Positions 4,921-63,457 of a stretch of DNA of 64,000 nt are shown here, piece by piece. Under the pieces are notes generated by a model, which saw only the letters and a list, made by a program, of their open reading frames with translations, had not been told where the DNA came from and did no database searches. The stretch is from a virus (Duplodnaviria; Caudoviricetes), in IMG/VR virus record IMGVR_UViG_3300035703_002708; one strand, given 5' to 3'. Position numbers and translations under genes: made by a program. How positions within the stretch are numbered: position 1 is the stretch's first letter; each line of letters begins with the position of its first letter.

Positions 4921-6594
4921 ATGATGAAAACAGATGTTGAAATCCTATATAAGCCTGAACGCGATGTTGAAATCCTATATAAGCATGAACGCAAAGTCTA
5001 CGGTACCAATTTTTTCAAAAACTCTTGTAGTTTAGAGGAAAGAACAAATACTAATCCTTTACCTCATATTACAGATGGTTTTGAATTTGATTCTTTATCA
5101 TCTGACAAGGAAGAAGATTTTGAAACAAACTTCGGTAATCCATTTTGTAGCGTCTCAAGAAGAAATAGAACTTTAGTTGTAGAAAAAACAGAAGATAAAG
5201 TTTCAATAAAAATATTTATCACAAGCACCGCAAGAAGAGTTGGTAGAGTTTATTTTGAAAAAACTAAGAACCTTTACTTCTTCACTTACAACATTAAGAC
5301 ACACGACTTTTATGATGGTGAGATAATTAATTACCACAAAAAAAGGAATTTCAGAAAAAAATTGAGGAGAAATCAGTTTTGGAGACAACCTATGATTCGT
5401 CTTATGGAATTTTTTGGGGGATTTTTCGCACAATCTGGTGAGAAACCAAGTAAAACTTTAGCCGTCACAGAATACGAAAAAGTAGTTAACCTTTTCACTT
5501 CCCAAATTCCCAACTACGACAAAAACTTTTTATTAACAAATGACGAGGCTTTGTTCAAAACACGGTGTGATAATTTAGGATATAAATTACCTGACAATTG
5601 GGCTTTATTTAGTAAAGTTTATCCAACCCCAACTAAAAAACTTTTAAAGAAACATAACTTCAAGTTTATAGATGCTTTACAATCAATCTATGGATTAAAT
5701 GGTGATAAGTTCAAAAAGATATTCCACGAAATAACTGATATAAATTCAAGGGCTTTAGAGTTCTCGGTAGATTTCTTCGGTGCCGAATTTTTTAAACAAC
5801 AAAAGGTAGAGTCCATTTTGAAAATCTTAACACACCACGACAGTTGGAGTTTTAAGTATTTGTTAGATAACCTACAAAAAATTGAATTCACTAAGCAAGA
5901 AAAGACAAACTTTTGGAATCTGTTTATATTAACAAGTGATAGTACGATTGATTTTTTTACACTATCTGAACACATAGATTTTATTGCAAGATTAAAAGGT
6001 TTTGGTGAGCAAGTTAAATTGAAGGCTAAAAACCGTAATCAGTTTATAGATGAACATACCGAGTTTTCGTCATTACTTCAGATGTATAAAAAAGGGGTTG
6101 TTTATAGACACTATAACGATGACTTTGTAAATAGAGTTGAGACACCTATTTTTGATAACGAATATTACTATCCTGTGTTACTCACAACAACGGAAGAGTA
6201 TAATCAGGAGTCGGCGGTTCAAAGTAATTGTGTTAGGGGATATTCAGATAAACCTTCGTCATTAATCATATCTTTACGTAAAGGAAGTAAAACATCCAAT
6301 GAACGGGCAACAATCGAATATAACTATCGGATGATGTCAGGTAAGATTTATATGACTAACATTCAGTGTTTGGGTAGGTTCAATAACAAACTGCCCGATG
6401 ACTGGAATTATGTTGTAAGAAAACTAAATGAGAGAATTCAATTACTAGGTTCTTCCAACGTATTTACCTTACCTGAACTAATAACTAAATTTAAACACAA
6501 AGAAATTTACCAAAAGGCGACATTCGATAAAAACGGATACCCCCATTGGGATAATGGATTAGAAAACGAAGAAGCGGATTTATTAGTATGGTAA
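4921..6594 (+). CDS. PcfJ-like domain protein
   Basis: C-terminal LLTTTEEYNQESAVQSNCVRGY...IISLR...ATIEY...QCLGRFN pattern. Confidence 0.65.
   Translation: MMKTDVEILYKPERDVEILYKHERKVYGTNFFKNSCSLEERTNTNPLPHITDGFEFDSLSSDKEEDFETNFGNPFCSVSRRNRTLVVEKTEDKVSIKIFITSTARRVGRVYFEKTKNLYFFTYNIKTHDFYDGEIINYHKKRNFRKKLRRNQFWRQPMIRLMEFFGGFFAQSGEKPSKTLAVTEYEKVVNLFTSQIPNYDKNFLLTNDEALFKTRCDNLGYKLPDNWALFSKVYPTPTKKLLKKHNFKFIDALQSIYGLNGDKFKKIFHEITDINSRALEFSVDFFGAEFFKQQKVESILKILTHHDSWSFKYLLDNLQKIEFTKQEKTNFWNLFILTSDSTIDFFTLSEHIDFIARLKGFGEQVKLKAKNRNQFIDEHTEFSSLLQMYKKGVVYRHYNDDFVNRVETPIFDNEYYYPVLLTTTEEYNQESAVQSNCVRGYSDKPSSLIISLRKGSKTSNERATIEYNYRMMSGKIYMTNIQCLGRFNNKLPDDWNYVVRKLNERIQLLGSSNVFTLPELITKFKHKEIYQKATFDKNGYPHWDNGLENEEADLLVW
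4933..4992 (+). repeat. 2 x 30-bp in-frame tandem duplication
   Basis: GATGTTGAAATCCTATATAAGC(C/A)TGAACGC twice, encoding DVEILYKPER/DVEILYKHER. Confidence 0.95.
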
Positions 6595-24070: not shown

Positions 24071-25696
24071 ATGGCAAAGTTCCGAAATTCCGCAGTTGTA
24101 GAAAAATTAGATAACACCCCACCCAAAGAAAACTTGGTTGCATCAAACGCAGTTCCGAAACCCGATACGACAAATCTTCAAGGGTTCGAGGCTTATTCAA
24201 TTGAAAATTGGCTCCGTCTGATTTCTATTTTGAATACTTCTAAATTGGAGAACCAGTATTATCGTTCAGAAACAGAAACTATGAAAGAGTTGAAATCTCT
24301 TGTGGATATCTGTGGTAAAGAGGACCCATACTTTGTGGCTCAGTGTATCGTGTATTCTCGTTGTATTGGTGAGGGTATGAGAAGTATTAATCACTTGGCG
24401 GCAGTTTATCTTGCTCCATTTATGAGTGGTAAAGACTGGTCAAAACGTTTCTTCTCAGGTTGGGATAAGAAATCTCAAAAAGGAGGTACCGTGTTTCGTC
24501 CTGATGATATGAGTGAGATGGTTAGTTGTTTTACCGCCCTTAATGGTAAGTCAATCACCAACTCAATGAAAAAAGGTTTTGCCTCTACGTTAGAGAAACT
24601 TGACACATACTCACTTTTGAAGTATAAGAGTTCGATTTTGGATTTGTTCAATTTGGTTCATCCAAAACAAGAAAACTCAAACGCCACCGTTGAATTCGAA
24701 GGTAGGGTTGTTCCAACATTTGAAGCCATCGTTAAAGGTTATAATGTGTCTGCTGACACTTGGGAGGTTGCTCAGTCAGATGCTGGACAAATTGTGGCTC
24801 AGGCGGTTCGTGAAGGTAAAATCTCAACAGAAGAAGCAAAACAAGTTCTTACTGAGGCAAAGTCTGAGAATTGGAAAGGATTACTTACCGAAAACAAACT
24901 TGGTATCTTGGCAGCAGTTCGTAACATTCGTAACATTCTGTTGAACAAACCTGATGGTGACACTATTAATAAGTTGTGTTCTCTTTTGAGTGATGAAGCC
25001 GCAATTCGTAACGGAAAGGTAATGCCATACCAATTAGATATGGCTAACGAAGTTCTAATATCAGAATTTAACGATTCTAACTCTCGTAAGGTATCAAAGG
25101 CGTTACTTGATGGTTATGAAAAATCCATTCCGAACCTTGCTGAGTTACTTACAGGTAACAACCTTGTAATGATTGATATGTCAGGTTCTATGAACACAGG
25201 AATCAATGACCCTAAAGGCAAGTCACGTTACAAATCTACGTGTTTGGACAAGGCATCACTAATCGGTATGACAATCGCCAAGGCAGTAAACGCCGATGTA
25301 ATTCGTTTCGGTTCACACGCTGAGTATGTTTCTTACAATACAAACTCTGATGTGTTCAGTTTGTCTAAATCTATCATTCAAGGAATGGGAGGAACCTCAC
25401 TGGCACAAGCGTGGAGTACGGCAGAAGCATCAGGTCGTAAGTATGATAGAGTATTTATTCTGTCAGATAATGAGTGTAATGAAGGTTCAACTTACTCTCG
25501 ATACAAGAGTTATGTTGAAAAAGTTGGGGACCCGTATGTCTATTCAATAGACCTAGCCGCTTACGGAACAATGGCTATCGCGGGACCAAAAGTAAGATAC
25601 TACTACGGATATGGTTTTTCAATGTTCGAAGATATTGCAAAATCAGAGTTCAACCCGATGCACCACATCGAAAAAATCCGCAAAGTAGAAATCTAA
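24071..25696 (+). CDS. rsr: Ro60/Rsr-like TROVE-vWA RNA-binding protein
   Basis: 541 aa; TROVE-like N-terminus (DPYFVAQCIVYSR..GMRS, KYK..I.DLFNLVHPK, TWE, ALVRNLRN-like AAVRNIRN); vWA MIDAS DMSGSM, GGT, LSDNE. Confidence 0.92.
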   Translation: MAKFRNSAVVEKLDNTPPKENLVASNAVPKPDTTNLQGFEAYSIENWLRLISILNTSKLENQYYRSETETMKELKSLVDICGKEDPYFVAQCIVYSRCIGEGMRSINHLAAVYLAPFMSGKDWSKRFFSGWDKKSQKGGTVFRPDDMSEMVSCFTALNGKSITNSMKKGFASTLEKLDTYSLLKYKSSILDLFNLVHPKQENSNATVEFEGRVVPTFEAIVKGYNVSADTWEVAQSDAGQIVAQAVREGKISTEEAKQVLTEAKSENWKGLLTENKLGILAAVRNIRNILLNKPDGDTINKLCSLLSDEAAIRNGKVMPYQLDMANEVLISEFNDSNSRKVSKALLDGYEKSIPNLAELLTGNNLVMIDMSGSMNTGINDPKGKSRYKSTCLDKASLIGMTIAKAVNADVIRFGSHAEYVSYNTNSDVFSLSKSIIQGMGGTSLAQAWSTAEASGRKYDRVFILSDNECNEGSTYSRYKSYVEKVGDPYVYSIDLAAYGTMAIAGPKVRYYYGYGFSMFEDIAKSEFNPMHHIEKIRKVEI

Positions 25697-40303: not shown

Positions 40304-43300
40304 ATGAAAACAATTATTAATCTTATCAAAAACAAAGTCTCGTTAGTCACGGGTCTTATTTTGATGTCCATATTAAGTTATGGGCAAATGTCATTAACAA
40401 CAACGGGGGTTGCTGTAACACAAAATTTTAACTCAATAGGAAATACCGCTACCGCTAGTTTACCATCGGGATTTAGACTTGGACAAAACGTGGCTTATTC
40501 ATCAGGTGTTTCCAATACTACAGCCGCGGCAGGAACCTCAGGTGCTGGTATAATTGCAACAACTGGTGGGTATTACAATTTTGGAGATGGTGTCAATTCA
40601 TCATCAACTGATAGGTCTGTCGGAGTTCTTACTTCTAGTGGATTTATTTCCCCAAGAGATTTGATGTTACAAATTCAGAACAACACTGGTGGAATCGTTA
40701 CTGATTTGGCTTTAACCTTTAAATACGAAAAATATAGGTCAGGTACGAGAATGTTTGACATCAAGTTTTTTGTTGGAACCGACGGTTCAACTTGGACACC
40801 ACTAACTTCTGGTGACCAAAACTATCCTGCTGACGCTAATAACACGACAGTTTCCAATCCGCCAACTTCGATAACTAAAAACATCAATGTGACAGGTTTG
40901 AACATCACAAATGGAGGTTTTTATTACTTGAAATGGTCTATTATTGGTAATGGTGGTTCATCAAATGGACAAGCTTTAGGTCTTGATGATATTTCAGTGA
41001 CACCAACAACACCACAACCATCAATATCTATTTCATCAATACCTAATTTCTCAACTATCGGTGGAGTTACCGCACCTATTCAATCATACACAGTATCTGG
41101 TGCAAACCTCATTCAAAATCTTACAATACAACCATTCAATTCTAATTTTGAAATCTCGACAGACGGAGTAAATTTTAGTGCCGGTGCAATTTTATTAACC
41201 CAATCAGGAGGAGTTGTTAATCCAACCACGATTTATGTAAAAATGGTTCCAACCACTGTAGGAACATTTACAGGTTCTATTTCACATAGTTCAAGTGGTG
41301 CAACATTACAGACACAAAATTTAACTGGTACTGTTGTTCCATCAACTTGGTATTCTGTTGCTTCAGGAAATATTAATGGTGCCGCAGTTTGGTCATCAAC
41401 ACCAACAGGAAGTCCTGACCCAATTGCTTATTCTAAATTCAGAACAGATGTAAGTTTGATTATTCAAAACGGACACACAATCGCACTTCCCTCATCATTG
41501 GGTGCTACAAACGTAAAAGATTTGACAATAAATTCAGGTGGTAAGTTATGGAGAAATTCATCATCAACCGCTAATATGGTCTATTTAAATGTTTATGGAA
41601 ATATCGTAAATAACGGAGAGATTGGTAATGGAACTACTTTTGATGCTTGTGGATTCAACATCGAAGGAAATTGTTCGGTCCAAGGAACAGGTATTTTCAA
41701 TTTAGGTCGTGTAAGAAAAAACACAACTTCACCAATATCTTCACTAACAATCCAAACTGACTCAGTTAATGTTAGATTCCCTGGTCTTGCACTTTATAAT
41801 GCTGTAGACAACACATCACTTACCGTTACAGTTCCAACAGGAAAAAAACTTTTACTTCCTCAAGGAGAGTTTTCTTTGACCTCAACAAACGGTACTGGTA
41901 ATAATTCTAATATGATTGTTTCTGTTAACGGAACCTTCACCGCACTTGGTTCAGGAACATCATATATCATCAATTTATCTACCCTATCAATACCATCGGC
42001 ACCTGTTGATAACACAAACCCTTGTTCATTTACTATGAATATCGGCTCAAAAGTTAGTATCAGAAACTTGGATATTAGACAAACTACAGTATCTAATTTA
42101 AATATCAATGGGGGTAACTTATCTGTATTCGGAACTATGCGAGTTTTTGCGGGTTCAGTTTCAACCAACAATTGTTTAACAATAGAAAATGGTGGTAACT
42201 TACTTTCGGGTACAGGTTTTACATACCCATACGTACCTTCAGGTGGTGTTGTTACAGGAAATGTTAAAGTTAGAAAAACAGGTAATACAGGTTTTGGTGA
42301 ATATAACTTTTGGTCATCACCAATTACAAATGCAACTTTAAATACCATAACTCAAAATGGTTCTTTAGCAGGTTCTCCTTTGAACACTTATGAGTATAAT
42401 CCAACTTTAGTTACAACAGAAATTCAAGACGGATGGGTAAATGTTTCTCCATCATCAACTATGTCAGTTGGTAAAGGTTATATCACAACAGGGGCGGGTT
42501 CTGTCGTATTTAATGGACCTGTAAATGATGGCACGGTAAATGCTCCAACACAGCAAGGAATTGGAACCAACTTTAATTTGGTTGGTAACCCATATCCATC
42601 ATCATTAACATCATCTACTTTTTTGACAACAAATGGTATTTCTGCTCTTTATCTTTGGGACGACGACGCATCCAATGGAGTTGATTATCAAAGTGGAGAC
42701 TATATTGTTGTTGGAACTCTAGGTGTCGTATCAGGAAGTCAATCAACACCATCACCAACAATTAACTCAATTTCACCTTGTCAGGGATTTTTCGTTCAAA
42801 CAAACTCATCATCTGTTACCTTTAATAACACTATGAGAAGTTCAGGAACTTCTACATTCTTCGAGGAAGACCCAATTCAAAGATTTTGGTTAAATGCAGT
42901 TTCACCTTCACAAGATTACAAAGAAACTCTAATAGCATTTAAAGAAGACGCAACCTTCAATAAAGATACTGCTTATGACGCTGAGGTGTTCGGTTCTATC
43001 CCTAATCCACAATTTGATTTTTGGTCAAAGTCTCAGGATGATTTTAATTTGACAATTCAAGCAATTCCAAACACAGGATTCGATATGGAAATTCCACTCG
43101 GTTTCAATTCACAAGAACTCGGTGAACACGTAATTTCTTTGGGTAATGTAGAAAATTTGGATGGAACAACTTTGTTTATTTTGGAAGATAAAACATTAAA
43201 CCTATTTCATTCATTAAGACAATCTCCATACATTTTCTCTATCACTCAACCTGAATTGGGTGACGATAGATTTGTTTTACATATCAAAAAACCTGTGAGT

Positions 43301-43981
43301 GTTAATGGTGGTTTAACAAATTGTATCGGAACAGGTGGAGATATTGTAATAGATGGTTCAAGTGATTGGACATACCTTGTAAATGACCAAGTTGGACAAC
43401 TTAATGACACTTTGGTCACTACTATAGAAAATTTGGCAGCGGGTGATTATTTAGTATATCTTTACCACGGCTCATATGTTATAACAAAATCAGTTACAAT
43501 TGGAAGTTCAACACCAGTAAGTATTAATATTAATAACTTCATTTCACCTTTAGTGGTGGGAGAACCTTTTACACTCTCATTCGAAGTGGAAGGGGCGTTT
43601 AATCCACAGATTTGGTACGGTGATGAATCAGATATAACTGAATCACCTATCCATACTTATAATGAACCAGGTGTTTATGTTATTACAATAATCGCTTCAA
43701 ACGACTACTGCTCAGGTATCGGACAAATCGAAGTTTCCGTAATTGGTCAGACAACATCAATTGACAATCCAACATTTAATTACGATTTTTATCCAAACCC
43801 CGCTAATCACATCATCAATTTCAAATCATACCAACAAAAAACAATCGTTGTATATAATTCAGTTGGTCAAGTGGTAAAAAATGAATTGGTTACAAATCAG
43901 TTATCATTAGAAGATTTGAATGAAGGTGTGTATATTTTATTAGTGGATGGAAAGACACACAAATTAATCGTAAATAAATGA
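40304..43981 (+). CDS. large T9SS type-A sorted surface protein (1225 aa)
   Basis: Signal peptide; beta-rich passenger; PKD; C-terminal FYPNPAN...VVYNSVGQVV...LEDLNEGVYILLV...KLIVNK. Confidence 0.92.
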   Translation: MKTIINLIKNKVSLVTGLILMSILSYGQMSLTTTGVAVTQNFNSIGNTATASLPSGFRLGQNVAYSSGVSNTTAAAGTSGAGIIATTGGYYNFGDGVNSSSTDRSVGVLTSSGFISPRDLMLQIQNNTGGIVTDLALTFKYEKYRSGTRMFDIKFFVGTDGSTWTPLTSGDQNYPADANNTTVSNPPTSITKNINVTGLNITNGGFYYLKWSIIGNGGSSNGQALGLDDISVTPTTPQPSISISSIPNFSTIGGVTAPIQSYTVSGANLIQNLTIQPFNSNFEISTDGVNFSAGAILLTQSGGVVNPTTIYVKMVPTTVGTFTGSISHSSSGATLQTQNLTGTVVPSTWYSVASGNINGAAVWSSTPTGSPDPIAYSKFRTDVSLIIQNGHTIALPSSLGATNVKDLTINSGGKLWRNSSSTANMVYLNVYGNIVNNGEIGNGTTFDACGFNIEGNCSVQGTGIFNLGRVRKNTTSPISSLTIQTDSVNVRFPGLALYNAVDNTSLTVTVPTGKKLLLPQGEFSLTSTNGTGNNSNMIVSVNGTFTALGSGTSYIINLSTLSIPSAPVDNTNPCSFTMNIGSKVSIRNLDIRQTTVSNLNINGGNLSVFGTMRVFAGSVSTNNCLTIENGGNLLSGTGFTYPYVPSGGVVTGNVKVRKTGNTGFGEYNFWSSPITNATLNTITQNGSLAGSPLNTYEYNPTLVTTEIQDGWVNVSPSSTMSVGKGYITTGAGSVVFNGPVNDGTVNAPTQQGIGTNFNLVGNPYPSSLTSSTFLTTNGISALYLWDDDASNGVDYQSGDYIVVGTLGVVSGSQSTPSPTINSISPCQGFFVQTNSSSVTFNNTMRSSGTSTFFEEDPIQRFWLNAVSPSQDYKETLIAFKEDATFNKDTAYDAEVFGSIPNPQFDFWSKSQDDFNLTIQAIPNTGFDMEIPLGFNSQELGEHVISLGNVENLDGTTLFILEDKTLNLFHSLRQSPYIFSITQPELGDDRFVLHIKKPVSVNGGLTNCIGTGGDIVIDGSSDWTYLVNDQVGQLNDTLVTTIENLAAGDYLVYLYHGSYVITKSVTIGSSTPVSININNFISPLVVGEPFTLSFEVEGAFNPQIWYGDESDITESPIHTYNEPGVYVITIIASNDYCSGIGQIEVSVIGQTTSIDNPTFNYDFYPNPANHIINFKSYQQKTIVVYNSVGQVVKNELVTNQLSLEDLNEGVYILLVDGKTHKLIVNK

Positions 43982-46247: not shown

Positions 46248-46466
46248 ATGGAAATCAAGATTTGCTCAACCTGTCAAGGTCAAGGATTAGTAGTTGTTAA
46301 AGACCGCATCAATCTAGCCGACGAAATTAATTGTGATAAGTGTAATGGAACAGGACGTGTTATGGTAAGAACATTCACGGTTGAGGTTCCTTTTGGGTTC
46401 AATAAGTCAAAACTTACAACTGCCTGTGATACAATATTCAAAACTATTTTAGATTTGAGAAAATGA
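46248..46466 (+). CDS. DnaJ-type zinc-finger microprotein
   Basis: CSTCQGQG and CDKCNGTG motifs; TTTG-N20-TAGTTTTG promoter at 46202-46233. Confidence 0.75.
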   Translation: MEIKICSTCQGQGLVVVKDRINLADEINCDKCNGTGRVMVRTFTVEVPFGFNKSKLTTACDTIFKTILDLRK

Positions 46467-47734
46467 TTTCTGAAAAGTTAAAAAACATACCAAAATTTGC
46501 GGGTTGCTACTTATTCAAGGACGATAAGGAGCAGGTTATCTATGTTGGTATGTCAAAATACTTACCAAAAAGAGTATCATCTTATTTTCAAAAGAAACAC
46601 TCTGATTTCAAAACCAAACAATTGGTTGAAAATGCAAGAGATGTGGATTTTATGATTACATCTTCCGAGTCTGAGGCTTTATTGATGGAGGAAGAACTTA
46701 TCAAATTATACAGACCAAAGTTCAATATCAAAGGTAAGGATGATAAGTCACGTAAGTGGTCCATTTGTTTCAGTGAAGAACCATTTCCTAAGTTGGAAGT
46801 GGTGAGAAACAAAGAAGATGATAGACCAAGTTTAGATTTTACAAATGGTCTTATCTGTTATGAAATCTACGACCTTATTCACGATGCGTTTGAATTACGT
46901 AGTTGTTCTTATGAACTGACCGATGAGAATATTGAGAGTCAAAAGTTCAAAGCCTGTTTGGAGTATCAGATGAAAAGATGTCTTGCTCCTTGTTTGGGTC
47001 TTGCAACCAAGTTTCAGTATTTGAATCGTATTGAGCAAGTCAAAAGAATATTTGAGTTGAACTTCGAGAAAGTGAAATCGGACATCAAACGAGTTATGAA
47101 GTATCACTCTGGTAAATTGGAGTTCGAACTTGCACAAACACAACTACACAAACTAAAAGTTGTTGAAGAACTTGAACAAAAGTTGGAGGTTGTCAGATTG
47201 AGAAAATACAATAAGAAAGCCTTTGAAATCAAACGAGAACTAAACCTTGACAGATTACCTTTAATTATCGAGGCTTTTGACAACTCACACAATCAGGGAG
47301 ATTCAAATGTTGCAGCTTCCGTAAGGTTTGTAAATGACAGACCAAACAAGAGTGACTACCGTAAATACATTATCAAATCTTTTGAAGGTGTCAATGACTA
47401 CGCTTCATTTGAAGAGGTCCTTACTCGTAGGTTCACTCGTATGTTGAAAGAAAAAACGCAGTTACCACACCTTGTTGTTATTGATGGAGGTAAAGGTCAG
47501 TTAAATGTTGCTATCAAAGTATTCGATGCTCTCAAACTACACGACAAGATTGATTTGATTTCTATCTCCAAAGACGGTAATCACAAGTCATCACAGGTTC
47601 ACACAAGAGACGGTAAGTCATTTGGTATTATGTCAAATCCAAACTTTGTTTTGTTGTCAAAAGTTCAAGAGGAAGTCCACAGATTTGCTATCAAGTTTCA
47701 CCGAGATAAACAATCCAAAAAGTTGATATCGTAA
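46463..47734 (+). CDS. uvrC: UvrC-like excinuclease lacking C-terminal HhH
   Basis: GCYLFKD..VIYVGMSK.L.KRV.SYF; IEAFDNSH; VVIDGGKGQL; VQEEVHRFAIKFHR then stop. Confidence 0.9.
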   Translation: MISEKLKNIPKFAGCYLFKDDKEQVIYVGMSKYLPKRVSSYFQKKHSDFKTKQLVENARDVDFMITSSESEALLMEEELIKLYRPKFNIKGKDDKSRKWSICFSEEPFPKLEVVRNKEDDRPSLDFTNGLICYEIYDLIHDAFELRSCSYELTDENIESQKFKACLEYQMKRCLAPCLGLATKFQYLNRIEQVKRIFELNFEKVKSDIKRVMKYHSGKLEFELAQTQLHKLKVVEELEQKLEVVRLRKYNKKAFEIKRELNLDRLPLIIEAFDNSHNQGDSNVAASVRFVNDRPNKSDYRKYIIKSFEGVNDYASFEEVLTRRFTRMLKEKTQLPHLVVIDGGKGQLNVAIKVFDALKLHDKIDLISISKDGNHKSSQVHTRDGKSFGIMSNPNFVLLSKVQEEVHRFAIKFHRDKQSKKLIS

Positions 47735-58408: not shown

Positions 58409-58440
58409 TTTGATTAGTTCGGAAATTATATATACATTTG
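58409..58440 (+). promoter_or_regulatory. Bacteroidota-type promoter of the ncRNA cluster
   Basis: TTTG, 20 nt, TACATTTG, 9 nt before tRNA-like A. Confidence 0.75.
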
Positions 58441-58449
58441 TGATGTAAT

Positions 58450-58558
58450 GGTCAGGTGGCGAAATGGTAGACGCATAGTGTTAGGTCTAATTAGACACGT
58501 TTGAAACAGAACTCCACTATTGTAGACGTACATACAGGTTCGAATCCTGTTCTGACCA
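58450..58558 (+). ncRNA. tRNA-like RNA A (Leu-type frame, anticodon loop replaced by 34 nt)
   Basis: GGTCAGG/TCTGACC acceptor; GCGAAATGGTAGACGC D arm; TAGTG/CACTA stem; TGTA-GACG-TACA variable arm; ACAGG-TTCGAAT-CCTGT T arm. Confidence 0.85.
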
Positions 58559-58560
58559 CA

Positions 58561-58770
58561 ATGAGTTAGAGATACTCAGCAGTCTTTGGTCCAAGACTCA
58601 TTTAACAATGGACTCGCTCAAACCGGACAGCGGAACGCCGGTTCTTGGGGATAAAGGCGGCAGCACACCCCCTCCCAAGTAGTGTGGCTGTTTTAATGAG
58701 GGATGCCTCGGAGGTTTTTAAGAGAATAGAAAACCCAAATAACTACTCACCCGTAATCTCAAGGTGGGGA
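58561..58770 (+). ncRNA. unassigned structured RNA
   Basis: GC-richer than flanks; several stems and two possible pseudoknots; lies between two tRNA-like RNAs. Confidence 0.55.
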
Positions 58771-58773
58771 AAT

Positions 58774-58861
58774 GGTCAGATGGCGGAATTGGATAGACGC
58801 TACCCTATATTTGGGGGAGAGGTGAAAGAAACTCATACAGGTTCGAGACCTGTTCTGACCA
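58774..58861 (+). ncRNA. tRNA-like RNA B (non-canonical anticodon arm)
   Basis: GGTCAGA/TCTGACC; GCGGAATTGGATAGACGC; ACCCT-ATATTTG-GGGGA arm lacking U33; ACAGG-TTCGAGA-CCTGT. Confidence 0.8.
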
Positions 58862-58918
58862 CTATAACGCTCCTAAGATATATTTAGGTTTTCTTATATT
58901 TATATATAAAACAAAATT

Positions 58919-61827: not shown

Positions 61828-61897
61828 TAGTCAGGACAGGATTCGAACCTGCATCTCCCGTACCAATACGAGGCGTTACCAATTACGCCACCTGACT
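61828..61897 (-). ncRNA. tRNA-like RNA C (anticodon loop reduced to 4 nt)
   Basis: rc: AGTCAGG TG GCGTAATTGGTAACGC C TCGTA-TTGG-TACGG GAGAT GCAGG-TTCGAAT-CCTGT CCTGACT A. Confidence 0.85.
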
Positions 61898-61953
61898 AAC
61901 CCCTTTGTTTTACTTCAGAGACGGGTACTCTTGCATAACATTTAATCTGTTAG

Positions 61954-62062
61954 CAGTCAGGACAGGATTCGAACCTGTATGATAAGTAGTAAAGTTATGG
62001 AAGTGACAATGTACTTACTTATCTATTCACTTCTAGCGTCTAACCAATTCCGCCACCTGACT
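61954..62062 (-). ncRNA. tRNA-like RNA D (expanded anticodon/variable region)
   Basis: rc: AGTCAGG/CCTGACT acceptor; GCGGAATTGGTTAGACGC; GAAGTGA-20nt-TCACTTC; ACAGG-TTCGAAT-CCTGT. Confidence 0.85.
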
Positions 62063-62144: not shown

Positions 62145-62175
62145 CAAAGATAATATAAATTATCATATTGACAAA
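62145..62175 (-). promoter_or_regulatory. Bacteroidota-type promoter
   Basis: On the minus strand: TTTG, 19 nt, TATCTTTG. Confidence 0.75.
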
Positions 62176-62531: not shown

Positions 62532-62700
62532 ATCCGTCCTCCATATACTGACAAAATGACGTGTTTTAGGGGGCTTAATCCCTTCTATCAAGTACGGACC
62601 CCATATTCCCAAAAAAAATTCTGGAAAAAATTTCAGAAAAATCACTACATTTGTTTGATAAAAATTATTTATTTTTGGAGTATAATCCCTATATTATATA

Positions 62701-63457
62701 TATGGAAACAGAAAAAAAATGTAATAGATGTGGTTTGATTTTACCTGTTGATGAATTCTATAAACGCAAAGATGGTAAGGTTAGAAACCCGTGTAAGAAT
62801 TGTAAAAAAATTATTAATGCAATTTCAAATAAAAAATGGTCTCAAACTGATGAGGGGAAATCAAAACAGAAATTATATAATAAGAAATATAAAATTAAGA
62901 AAAAGGAAGAAAATAGAATAATCAGGGAAGAAAAGAGACAAATAAAAATTAATGAACAATTAGAAAAGAAACGTATTAAAGATTTAGTAAAACAGGAAAA
63001 ACTACAACTCAAAATACAACTAAAAAATAAAAAAAAGGAAGAGTATATAAAAAAGTTAGAATATTATAAGAGTGATGAATACAAAGAATTAAAGAGGAAA
63101 AGAACTAATGCCAAAAACTATATCAGATGGAAGAAAAAATGGGAAACAAATACAACTTTTGCGATGAAAGTCAGATTGAGAAATTTAATTAGAAAATCTT
63201 TCATTAAAAGGGGATATTCCAAATCATCAAAAACTCAAGATATTTTGGGTATAGATTACGAAGGTCTTGTTAAACATATAGAGAGTCAATTCAAAGACGG
63301 GATGACTTGGGAGAATAGAGGAGAATGGCACATAGACCACATAATTCCTCTTTCATCAGCAACATCTGAAGATGAACTCACAAAGTTATGTCATTATACC
63401 AATTTACAACCCTTATGGGAAAAAGATAACTTGGAAAAATCCAATAAGATACTTTAA
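62701..63457 (+). CDS. HNH endonuclease with N-terminal zinc finger
   Basis: CNRC...CKNC; WHIDHIIPLS...CHYTNLQPLWEKDNLEKSNK. Confidence 0.88.

Follow-up and report, generated by a model that had tools for sequence, protein, structure and literature searches.

What is encoded between the two neighboring tRNA-like units of this phage DNA, and is it an RNA with a fold and a function of its own? The window (the whole stretch analyzed, 64,000 nucleotides) is AT-rich phage DNA with 16 exact matches to a Bacteroidota-type promoter. Since it also encodes a type IX secretion tail protein (1225 aa with a type IX secretion C-terminal domain, 40304-43981), the host is probably a Bacteroidota bacterium. 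A preliminary description of the locus had proposed an unassigned pseudoknotted RNA that the tRNA-like units on either side could excise precisely. The locus is organized as follows.

58409-58440, + strand: sigma-A promoter of the Bacteroidota type (TTTG, 20 nt, TAnnTTTG), an exact consensus match; putatively active
58450-58558, + strand: tRNA-like unit A, with a leucine-type body (Rfam tRNA, 41.3 bits)
58559-58773, + strand: ncRNA gene, predicted 215 nt between two processing sites; 228 distinct homologues with the same ends
58774-58861, + strand: tRNA-like unit B (ARAGORN), with a non-canonical anticodon arm
58872-58895, + strand: weak hairpin and U-run, a candidate terminator from sequence inspection and folding

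The predicted transcription start of the promoter lies at about 58445, just before unit A; the position of the promoter box, -12 to -5, follows PMC9723704. In unit A, a loop of about 34 nt replaces the anticodon loop, and CCA is not encoded. Processing at the 3' end of unit A would set the 5' end of the ncRNA, and processing at the 5' end of unit B would set its 3' end. A terminator scan made no call at 58872-58895.

Searches of the window and 20 homologous loci with Rfam 15, at the gathering thresholds and at E values up to 10, returned nothing on the ncRNA. The nested folding energy of the window ncRNA was no better than that of shuffles (z +0.82), which is unsurprising since half of the helices are pseudoknotted, and the window sequence alone could therefore not settle whether the RNA is real. 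We gathered homologues by pattern scans of viral and metagenome contigs followed by iterated profile searches, which gave 340 matches, 305 of them near full length. The full-length family comprises 228 distinct sequences of 203-300 nt (median 213 nt), with a mean identity of 60% and a minimum of 27%. The family holds no conserved ORF, and a small ORF is not kept.

From 5' to 3', the fold runs through a hairpin, three H-type pseudoknots placed back to back, a core of conserved sequence, and a final hairpin, and the two terminal hairpin loops pair with each other.

58562-58578, + strand: 5' hairpin P1, 5 bp with a 7-nt loop; 97.7% paired, four of five pairs changing on both sides
58581-58613, + strand: pseudoknot 1, 58581-85/58594-98 and 58589-93/58609-13, with an A-rich loop 3
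58614-58643, + strand: pseudoknot 2, stem 1 58614-18/58629-33 and stem 2 58621-26/58638-43
58644-58688, + strand: pseudoknot 3, 58644-49/58674-79 plus 58655-57/58671-73 across a 5-nt bulge, and 58660-66/58682-88
58688-58745, + strand: core, with a U-tract, hairpin A, hairpin B, a linker, and a near-invariant C-U-A (58743-45)
58698-58709, + strand: hairpin A, 3 bp, a bulged G, a lone pair, and an A-N-G triloop; 95.5% paired
58711-58736, + strand: hairpin B, a lone pair, a bulged A, and 6 bp; 84.6% paired
58746-58768, + strand: 3' hairpin, 95.7% paired, whose loop 58756-60 pairs with the P1 loop 58569-73

Across an alignment of 44 sequences, pairing under the full model reaches 80.3%, against 69.5% with shuffled partners; none of 500 shuffles attained this value, and 51 of the 61 pairs change on both sides. 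The alignment is imperfect in the variable pseudoknots, so the per-helix figures there (38-88%) understate their support. Whole-length mutual information on a MAFFT alignment was drowned by subfamily signal. A descriptor of the three pseudoknots parses 59 of 73 divergent representatives versus 32 of 365 shuffles, which also score lower, and 191 of 225 copies overall. It likewise parses three held-out members that had been identified with only the core model. The window itself scores 89.7; the maximum is 73.7 among 200 shuffles, 19 of which parse. We regard it as virtually certain that this is a real, conserved structured RNA.

With covarying helices and no Rfam match, the earlier assignment to a pseudoknotted RNA of no known class holds, and all the motifs it named are present at or near the places given for them. 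Its first pseudoknot, the CTTGGG/CCCAAG pairing now placed in pseudoknot 3, and the later stems GAGG/CCTC, GGTTTT/AAAACC, and CTCACC/GGTGGG are each supported by homologues. The helix AACCGG/CCGGTT is also supported, as stem 2 of a separate middle pseudoknot that had gone unseen, and in the longer GGCAGC-ACAC/GTGT-GCTGTT pairing the support covers the inner ACAC/GTGT; on inspection of the alignment, the outer GGCAGC/GCTGTT looks specific to the window. The domain-closing helix CTCATT/AATGAG (58597-58700) is not supported, since it is 61.8% paired, 473 of 500 shuffles do as well, and it clashes with two covarying helices. Stem 1 of the middle pseudoknot, the 5' hairpin, and the pairing between the terminal loops were absent from the preliminary description.

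The pseudoknots behave as structural units, and the invariant bases sit in the core instead. Each pseudoknot stem occurs in 37-90 sequence variants, and the linkers between abutting pseudoknots are 0-2 nt in nearly all copies. The module types occur in 116 combinations, which points to reassortment of the pseudoknots. In homologues, loop 3 of pseudoknot 2 can hold inserts as long as about 60 nt. Long forms with structured inserts of 40-60 nt were seen at L118:5-266 and in L264, L291, and L380, as well as in L337, L361, and L407; the inserts sit either in loop 3 of pseudoknot 2 or in the stretch separating hairpins A and B, and those of the first type seem to contain further helices of their own.

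In the core, the invariant bases are the U-tract, the bulged G and the A-N-G triloop of hairpin A, and the C-U-A before the 3' hairpin. Every pair of hairpin A shows changes on both sides, while the A and G of its triloop are the same in 100% of anchored cores. The triloop base between them tracks the base preceding C-U-A (58704-58742, U-A or A-U), which is suggestive of a tertiary pair of the T-loop type. Four core positions, this pair included, switch together as one block, and the switch could reflect a single split in descent. A possible fourth pseudoknot would join the U-tract to the loop of hairpin B; this pairing is 80% paired, shows no both-side change or covariation, and gave 115 of 300 in the swap test.

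The pairing between the terminal loops (58569-73/58756-60, hereafter the kiss) is 99.1% paired, with both-side changes in all five pairs, and cognate loops pair better than 300 of 300 swapped combinations. Five homologues (L103, L350, L364, L375, and L398) carry wholly different yet complementary loops. This covariation fits an intramolecular ring and an oligomer alike. Another long-range partner considered for the 5' strand, 58744-49, is 91% paired with it, and covariation there does not go beyond that of shuffles (48/500).

A variant architecture bears on the role of the 5' arm. In a second copy on contig L186 (6905-7160, + strand), a tRNA-like body is fused directly to the core and 3' hairpin, forming a stand-alone unit with a sigma-70-type promoter and a terminator; similar forms occur in L187, L195, and L263. 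ARAGORN reads a CUA anticodon in an 11-nt loop of this body, and the enlarged anticodon loop is complementary over 4 bp to an altered 3' loop, in this one lineage. The same contig bears a full-length copy (L186:100-311), and the fused copy may be a deletion product. In the light of this fusion, the core looks like a module, and the arm from P1 to pseudoknot 3 like a spacer that a tRNA may replace.

The surroundings of the gene are as regular in spacing as they are varied in kind. Upstream, a tRNA or a tRNA-like T-arm and acceptor is present for at least 189 of 223 copies, 175 of which start exactly 3 nt after the discriminator. Downstream, at least 176 of 219 have a tRNA or tRNA-like unit that begins 4-9 nt beyond the end of the model. 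The upstream trailer is CAA in 161 of 189 copies versus 858 of 1817 tRNAs in the same loci. The neighbors comprise more than 30 kinds of tRNA on each side, most flanks are ordinary tRNAs, and only about 24 of 224 copies have A/B-type mimics on both sides. Some copies stand alone: those of L306 and L316 directly follow a promoter, and that of L222 ends at a terminator. Copies without an upstream tRNA retain the whole fold. The fixed spacing fits the proposed precise release, so that excision by tRNA processing is likely, whereas mimic flanks are unnecessary for it. Units A and B are not special partners, given the predominance of ordinary tRNAs at the flanks and the existence of stand-alone copies. 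The fixed ends, varied neighbors, and stand-alone copies together indicate that the ncRNA is an autonomous gene that borrows tRNA processing to form its ends. Two of the loci hold other RNA elements. A freshwater-1 RNA (RF02979, 71 bits against a cut-off of 72) lies 25 nt upstream of one copy (L138:295-356, - strand), and an HDV-like ribozyme match of 35 bits, below the cut-off, lies directly 3' of a tRNA-like gene (L370:1390-1457, - strand) and is probably a theta ribozyme.

The family appears to belong to very large phages. A covariance model built on the core and used to scan genomes found one copy in each of ten genomes of 261-430 kb, eight of which had been picked as carriers and two only for the tRNA-mimic motif, without reference to the ncRNA. 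A further 41 records chosen for this motif include 11 that clearly carry the ncRNA, almost all of them pieces of large genomes; none of the eight complete records of 37-120 kb has it. The carriers are phages of 260-430 kb with Bacteroidota-type promoters, usually with one copy. An exception is L409, with two copies (5836-6051 and a second site) in different neighborhoods. The frequent single-copy presence in very large phages suggests a general role in the infection cycle.

All five carriers tested encode tmRNA, and two of the five encode bS21; in these respects they resemble the freshwater Bacteroidetes jumbo phages of PMC9723584. One 380-kb genome (G004, that of L438) has two tmRNA matches above the Rfam cut-off (327939-328335 and 82619-82990). 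Among the neighboring genes, no constant partner protein of the ncRNA was found; the commonest neighbor, an RNase H-like protein, lies close to 26 of 217 copies and is encoded by 4 of 11 carrier genomes.

Outside the homologues gathered here, traces of the family are few. A blastn search against 50,697 phage records found no match to the ncRNA, and a pattern scan of GTDB gave one true match, a full copy (L431:35-248). The contig that holds it, 711 bp long and assigned to a Nanopelagicales MAG, has phage-style tRNAs on both sides of the copy and is probably misbinned phage DNA. In the literature covered, which takes in few of the subscription journals, the family's sequence strings occur in no paper and we found no description of it. 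The RNA candidates listed by an IMG/VR survey (PMC10690425) are at most 151 nt long, and fragments of the family could be among its unnamed candidates. The class is apparently undescribed, with a new architecture in a known setting, that of the orphan structured RNAs of phage tRNA arrays.

Several known systems share traits with it. T4 RNAs C and D and the stable RNAs of T5 are cut from phage tRNA-cluster transcripts, as predicted for the ncRNA; they differ from the ncRNA in size, and no sequence match was found in the 50,697 phage records. The upstream pseudoknot domain of tobamoviruses has three tandem pseudoknots in a quasi-continuous helix upstream of a tRNA-like structure. However, it is a cis element of a plant-virus genome with no kissing clamp and no comparable core, and we do not suggest homology. 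Rfam gave no match to group I introns or RNase P RNA on the ncRNA at E values up to 10, and no match to YrlA Y RNA (RF02553) on it in 20 loci.

What could such an RNA do? We tentatively favor, with slightly less than even confidence, a free, stable, end-clamped phage RNA that would act in trans by virtue of its shape, its core binding a host translation or decay factor. Transcription from the 58409-58440 promoter would place the ncRNA within a tRNA-type precursor. As expected from established enzymology, RNase Z would cut after the discriminator of unit A (58558) and RNase P before 58774, releasing 58559-58773. The covariation indicates that this RNA folds into P1, three abutting pseudoknots, the core, and the 3' hairpin, with its terminal loops paired. 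The pseudoknots may stack into a bent rod of fixed length that acts as a spacer, and the kiss would clamp both ends, as a ring or as a head-to-tail oligomer, protecting the RNA from exonucleases. The core would then be the working surface, perhaps a scaffold or decoy for a host translation or RNA-decay factor during infection. This partner is a guess from context: the tmRNA and bS21 genes of the carriers imply that these phages invest in translation control.

A somewhat unlikely alternative shares the transcription, release, and folding steps, and takes assembly itself as the function: the kiss would form between molecules and build head-to-tail rings or cages of RNA only, like ROOL, GOLLD, and phi29 pRNA. 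The strict retention of a 5-6 bp loop-loop pairing and the missing partner protein are in keeping with this, and the core would have a long way to fold back along a straight rod from P1 to pseudoknot 3, estimated at about 41 bp. ROOL offers a precedent, a phage RNA near tRNA islands that is held together by kissing loops, earlier predicted as tertiary contacts (PMC12286853). ROOL and GOLLD (PMC12286853, PMC5737381) resemble the ncRNA as phage RNAs near tRNA islands with multiple pseudoknots, loop-loop pairings, and no known protein partner. However, they are multi-stem junction folds of about 580 nt and more than 800 nt, respectively, whereas the ncRNA, far smaller at a median of 213 nt, is built from serial H-type pseudoknots and terminal kissing hairpins and matches neither Rfam model. 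The complementarity between the tRNA body and the 3' loop in the fused L186 copy suits an intramolecular clamp at least equally well.

A new ribozyme, which would cut itself from the upstream tRNA or help to mature neighboring tRNAs as theta does, is distinctly unlikely. Theta (HDV-like) ribozymes also start immediately 3' of phage tRNA genes (PMC10879173), and the exact 3-nt distance to the discriminator, the preference for CAA, and the invariant unpaired bases of the core would suit such an activity. However, CAA is the commonest trailer in these arrays anyway, and the ncRNA, unlike theta, also occurs without an upstream tRNA, with its entire fold kept. The theta fold is minimal, a double pseudoknot of nested form with a catalytic C in J4/2, while the ncRNA exceeds 200 nt and its pseudoknots are serial; Rfam found no HDV-model match over it in the window and 20 loci, and no other ribozyme model matched. 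A short A-rich run in one subtype is reminiscent of the hatchet core. Hatchet ribozymes (RF02678; PMC4604424, PMC6561176) likewise begin with a short hairpin with a purine-rich loop, but three conserved bases join their P1 to P2 where three pseudoknots intervene in the ncRNA. RF02678 had no match on 20 loci, and its weak matches in carrier genomes lie elsewhere, with no overlap with the ncRNA.

More speculative, and just as doubtful, is the idea that, closed into a pseudoknot ring, the RNA could bind the host ribosome. The dimensions of P1 (5 bp, 7-nt loop) are those of an anticodon stem-loop, and the kiss might mimic the pairing of anticodon and codon. In L186, the arm from P1 to pseudoknot 3 can give way to a real tRNA body, and the ring would resemble that of tmRNA, lacking its tag and acceptor. 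In tmRNA (RF00023), pk2, pk3, and pk4 follow one another as H-type pseudoknots of variable sequence within a closed ring. The ncRNA shares the serial arrangement, and pseudoknot 1 is superficially like pk1 of some phage tmRNAs. It is not itself a tmRNA: ARAGORN and Rfam call none on it, and the tRNA-like domain (alanine acceptor and T-arm) is missing. No tag frame has a conserved length, an early AUG is missing in 48 of 228 sequences, and a stop in the 3' loop is not conserved. Family profiles compared with nine phage tmRNAs gave a best E value of 3, and a permuted tmRNA is rejected since profile similarity is lacking and the same phages carry a separate, complete tmRNA. If the ribosome-binding idea were true, jumbo phages would be using an RNA translation factor or ribosome blocker of a new kind.

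It is improbable that the ncRNA is a cis element that only stabilizes or paces the processing of tRNA precursors and never becomes a free RNA. It almost always lies within tRNA arrays, and pseudoknots can block exonucleases. However, its neighbors change freely, a genome usually has a single copy, stand-alone transcription units exist, and a clamped fold of 215 nt seems more than such a role needs. An array of decoy antitoxins, like the ToxI pseudoknots of type III systems, that neutralizes host abortive-infection nucleases is very improbable. The three modules of about 32-45 nt are variable and reassorting, but they are unlike one another rather than repeats, number always three in the copies inspected, and lack the single-stranded A-rich linkers for toxin cleavage; no constant neighbor gene accompanies them, and RF02519 had no match in the two records searched. 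A functionless chance spacer or degenerate sequence, with which the nested folding result would agree, can practically be dismissed since the covariation contradicts it, along with hundreds of homologues, compensatory changes, and conserved ends.

This compact and widespread class enlarges the small set of ornate phage RNAs. Its length of about 215 nt makes it far more accessible to dissection than ROOL or GOLLD, as do its interchangeable pseudoknot modules, its natural kiss variants, and its natural fusion with a tRNA, and it offers a tractable route to the roles of orphan RNAs in phage tRNA arrays.

Other genes of the window include a UvrC-like nuclease (46463-47734), an endonuclease VII-like gene (62651-63457), and a 541-aa Ro60-like protein (24071-25696, + strand; phrog_850, E 1e-32, with a weak match to the Ro60 vWA domain). 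The last has a relative in one of five carrier genomes, and we consider it a candidate partner of the tRNA-like units, not a constant companion of the ncRNA. Two further tRNA-like units of the same body type, with abnormal anticodon arms, lie on the opposite strand (61828-62062, -), and this second transcription unit has its own Bacteroidota-type promoter, with a match starting at 62175.
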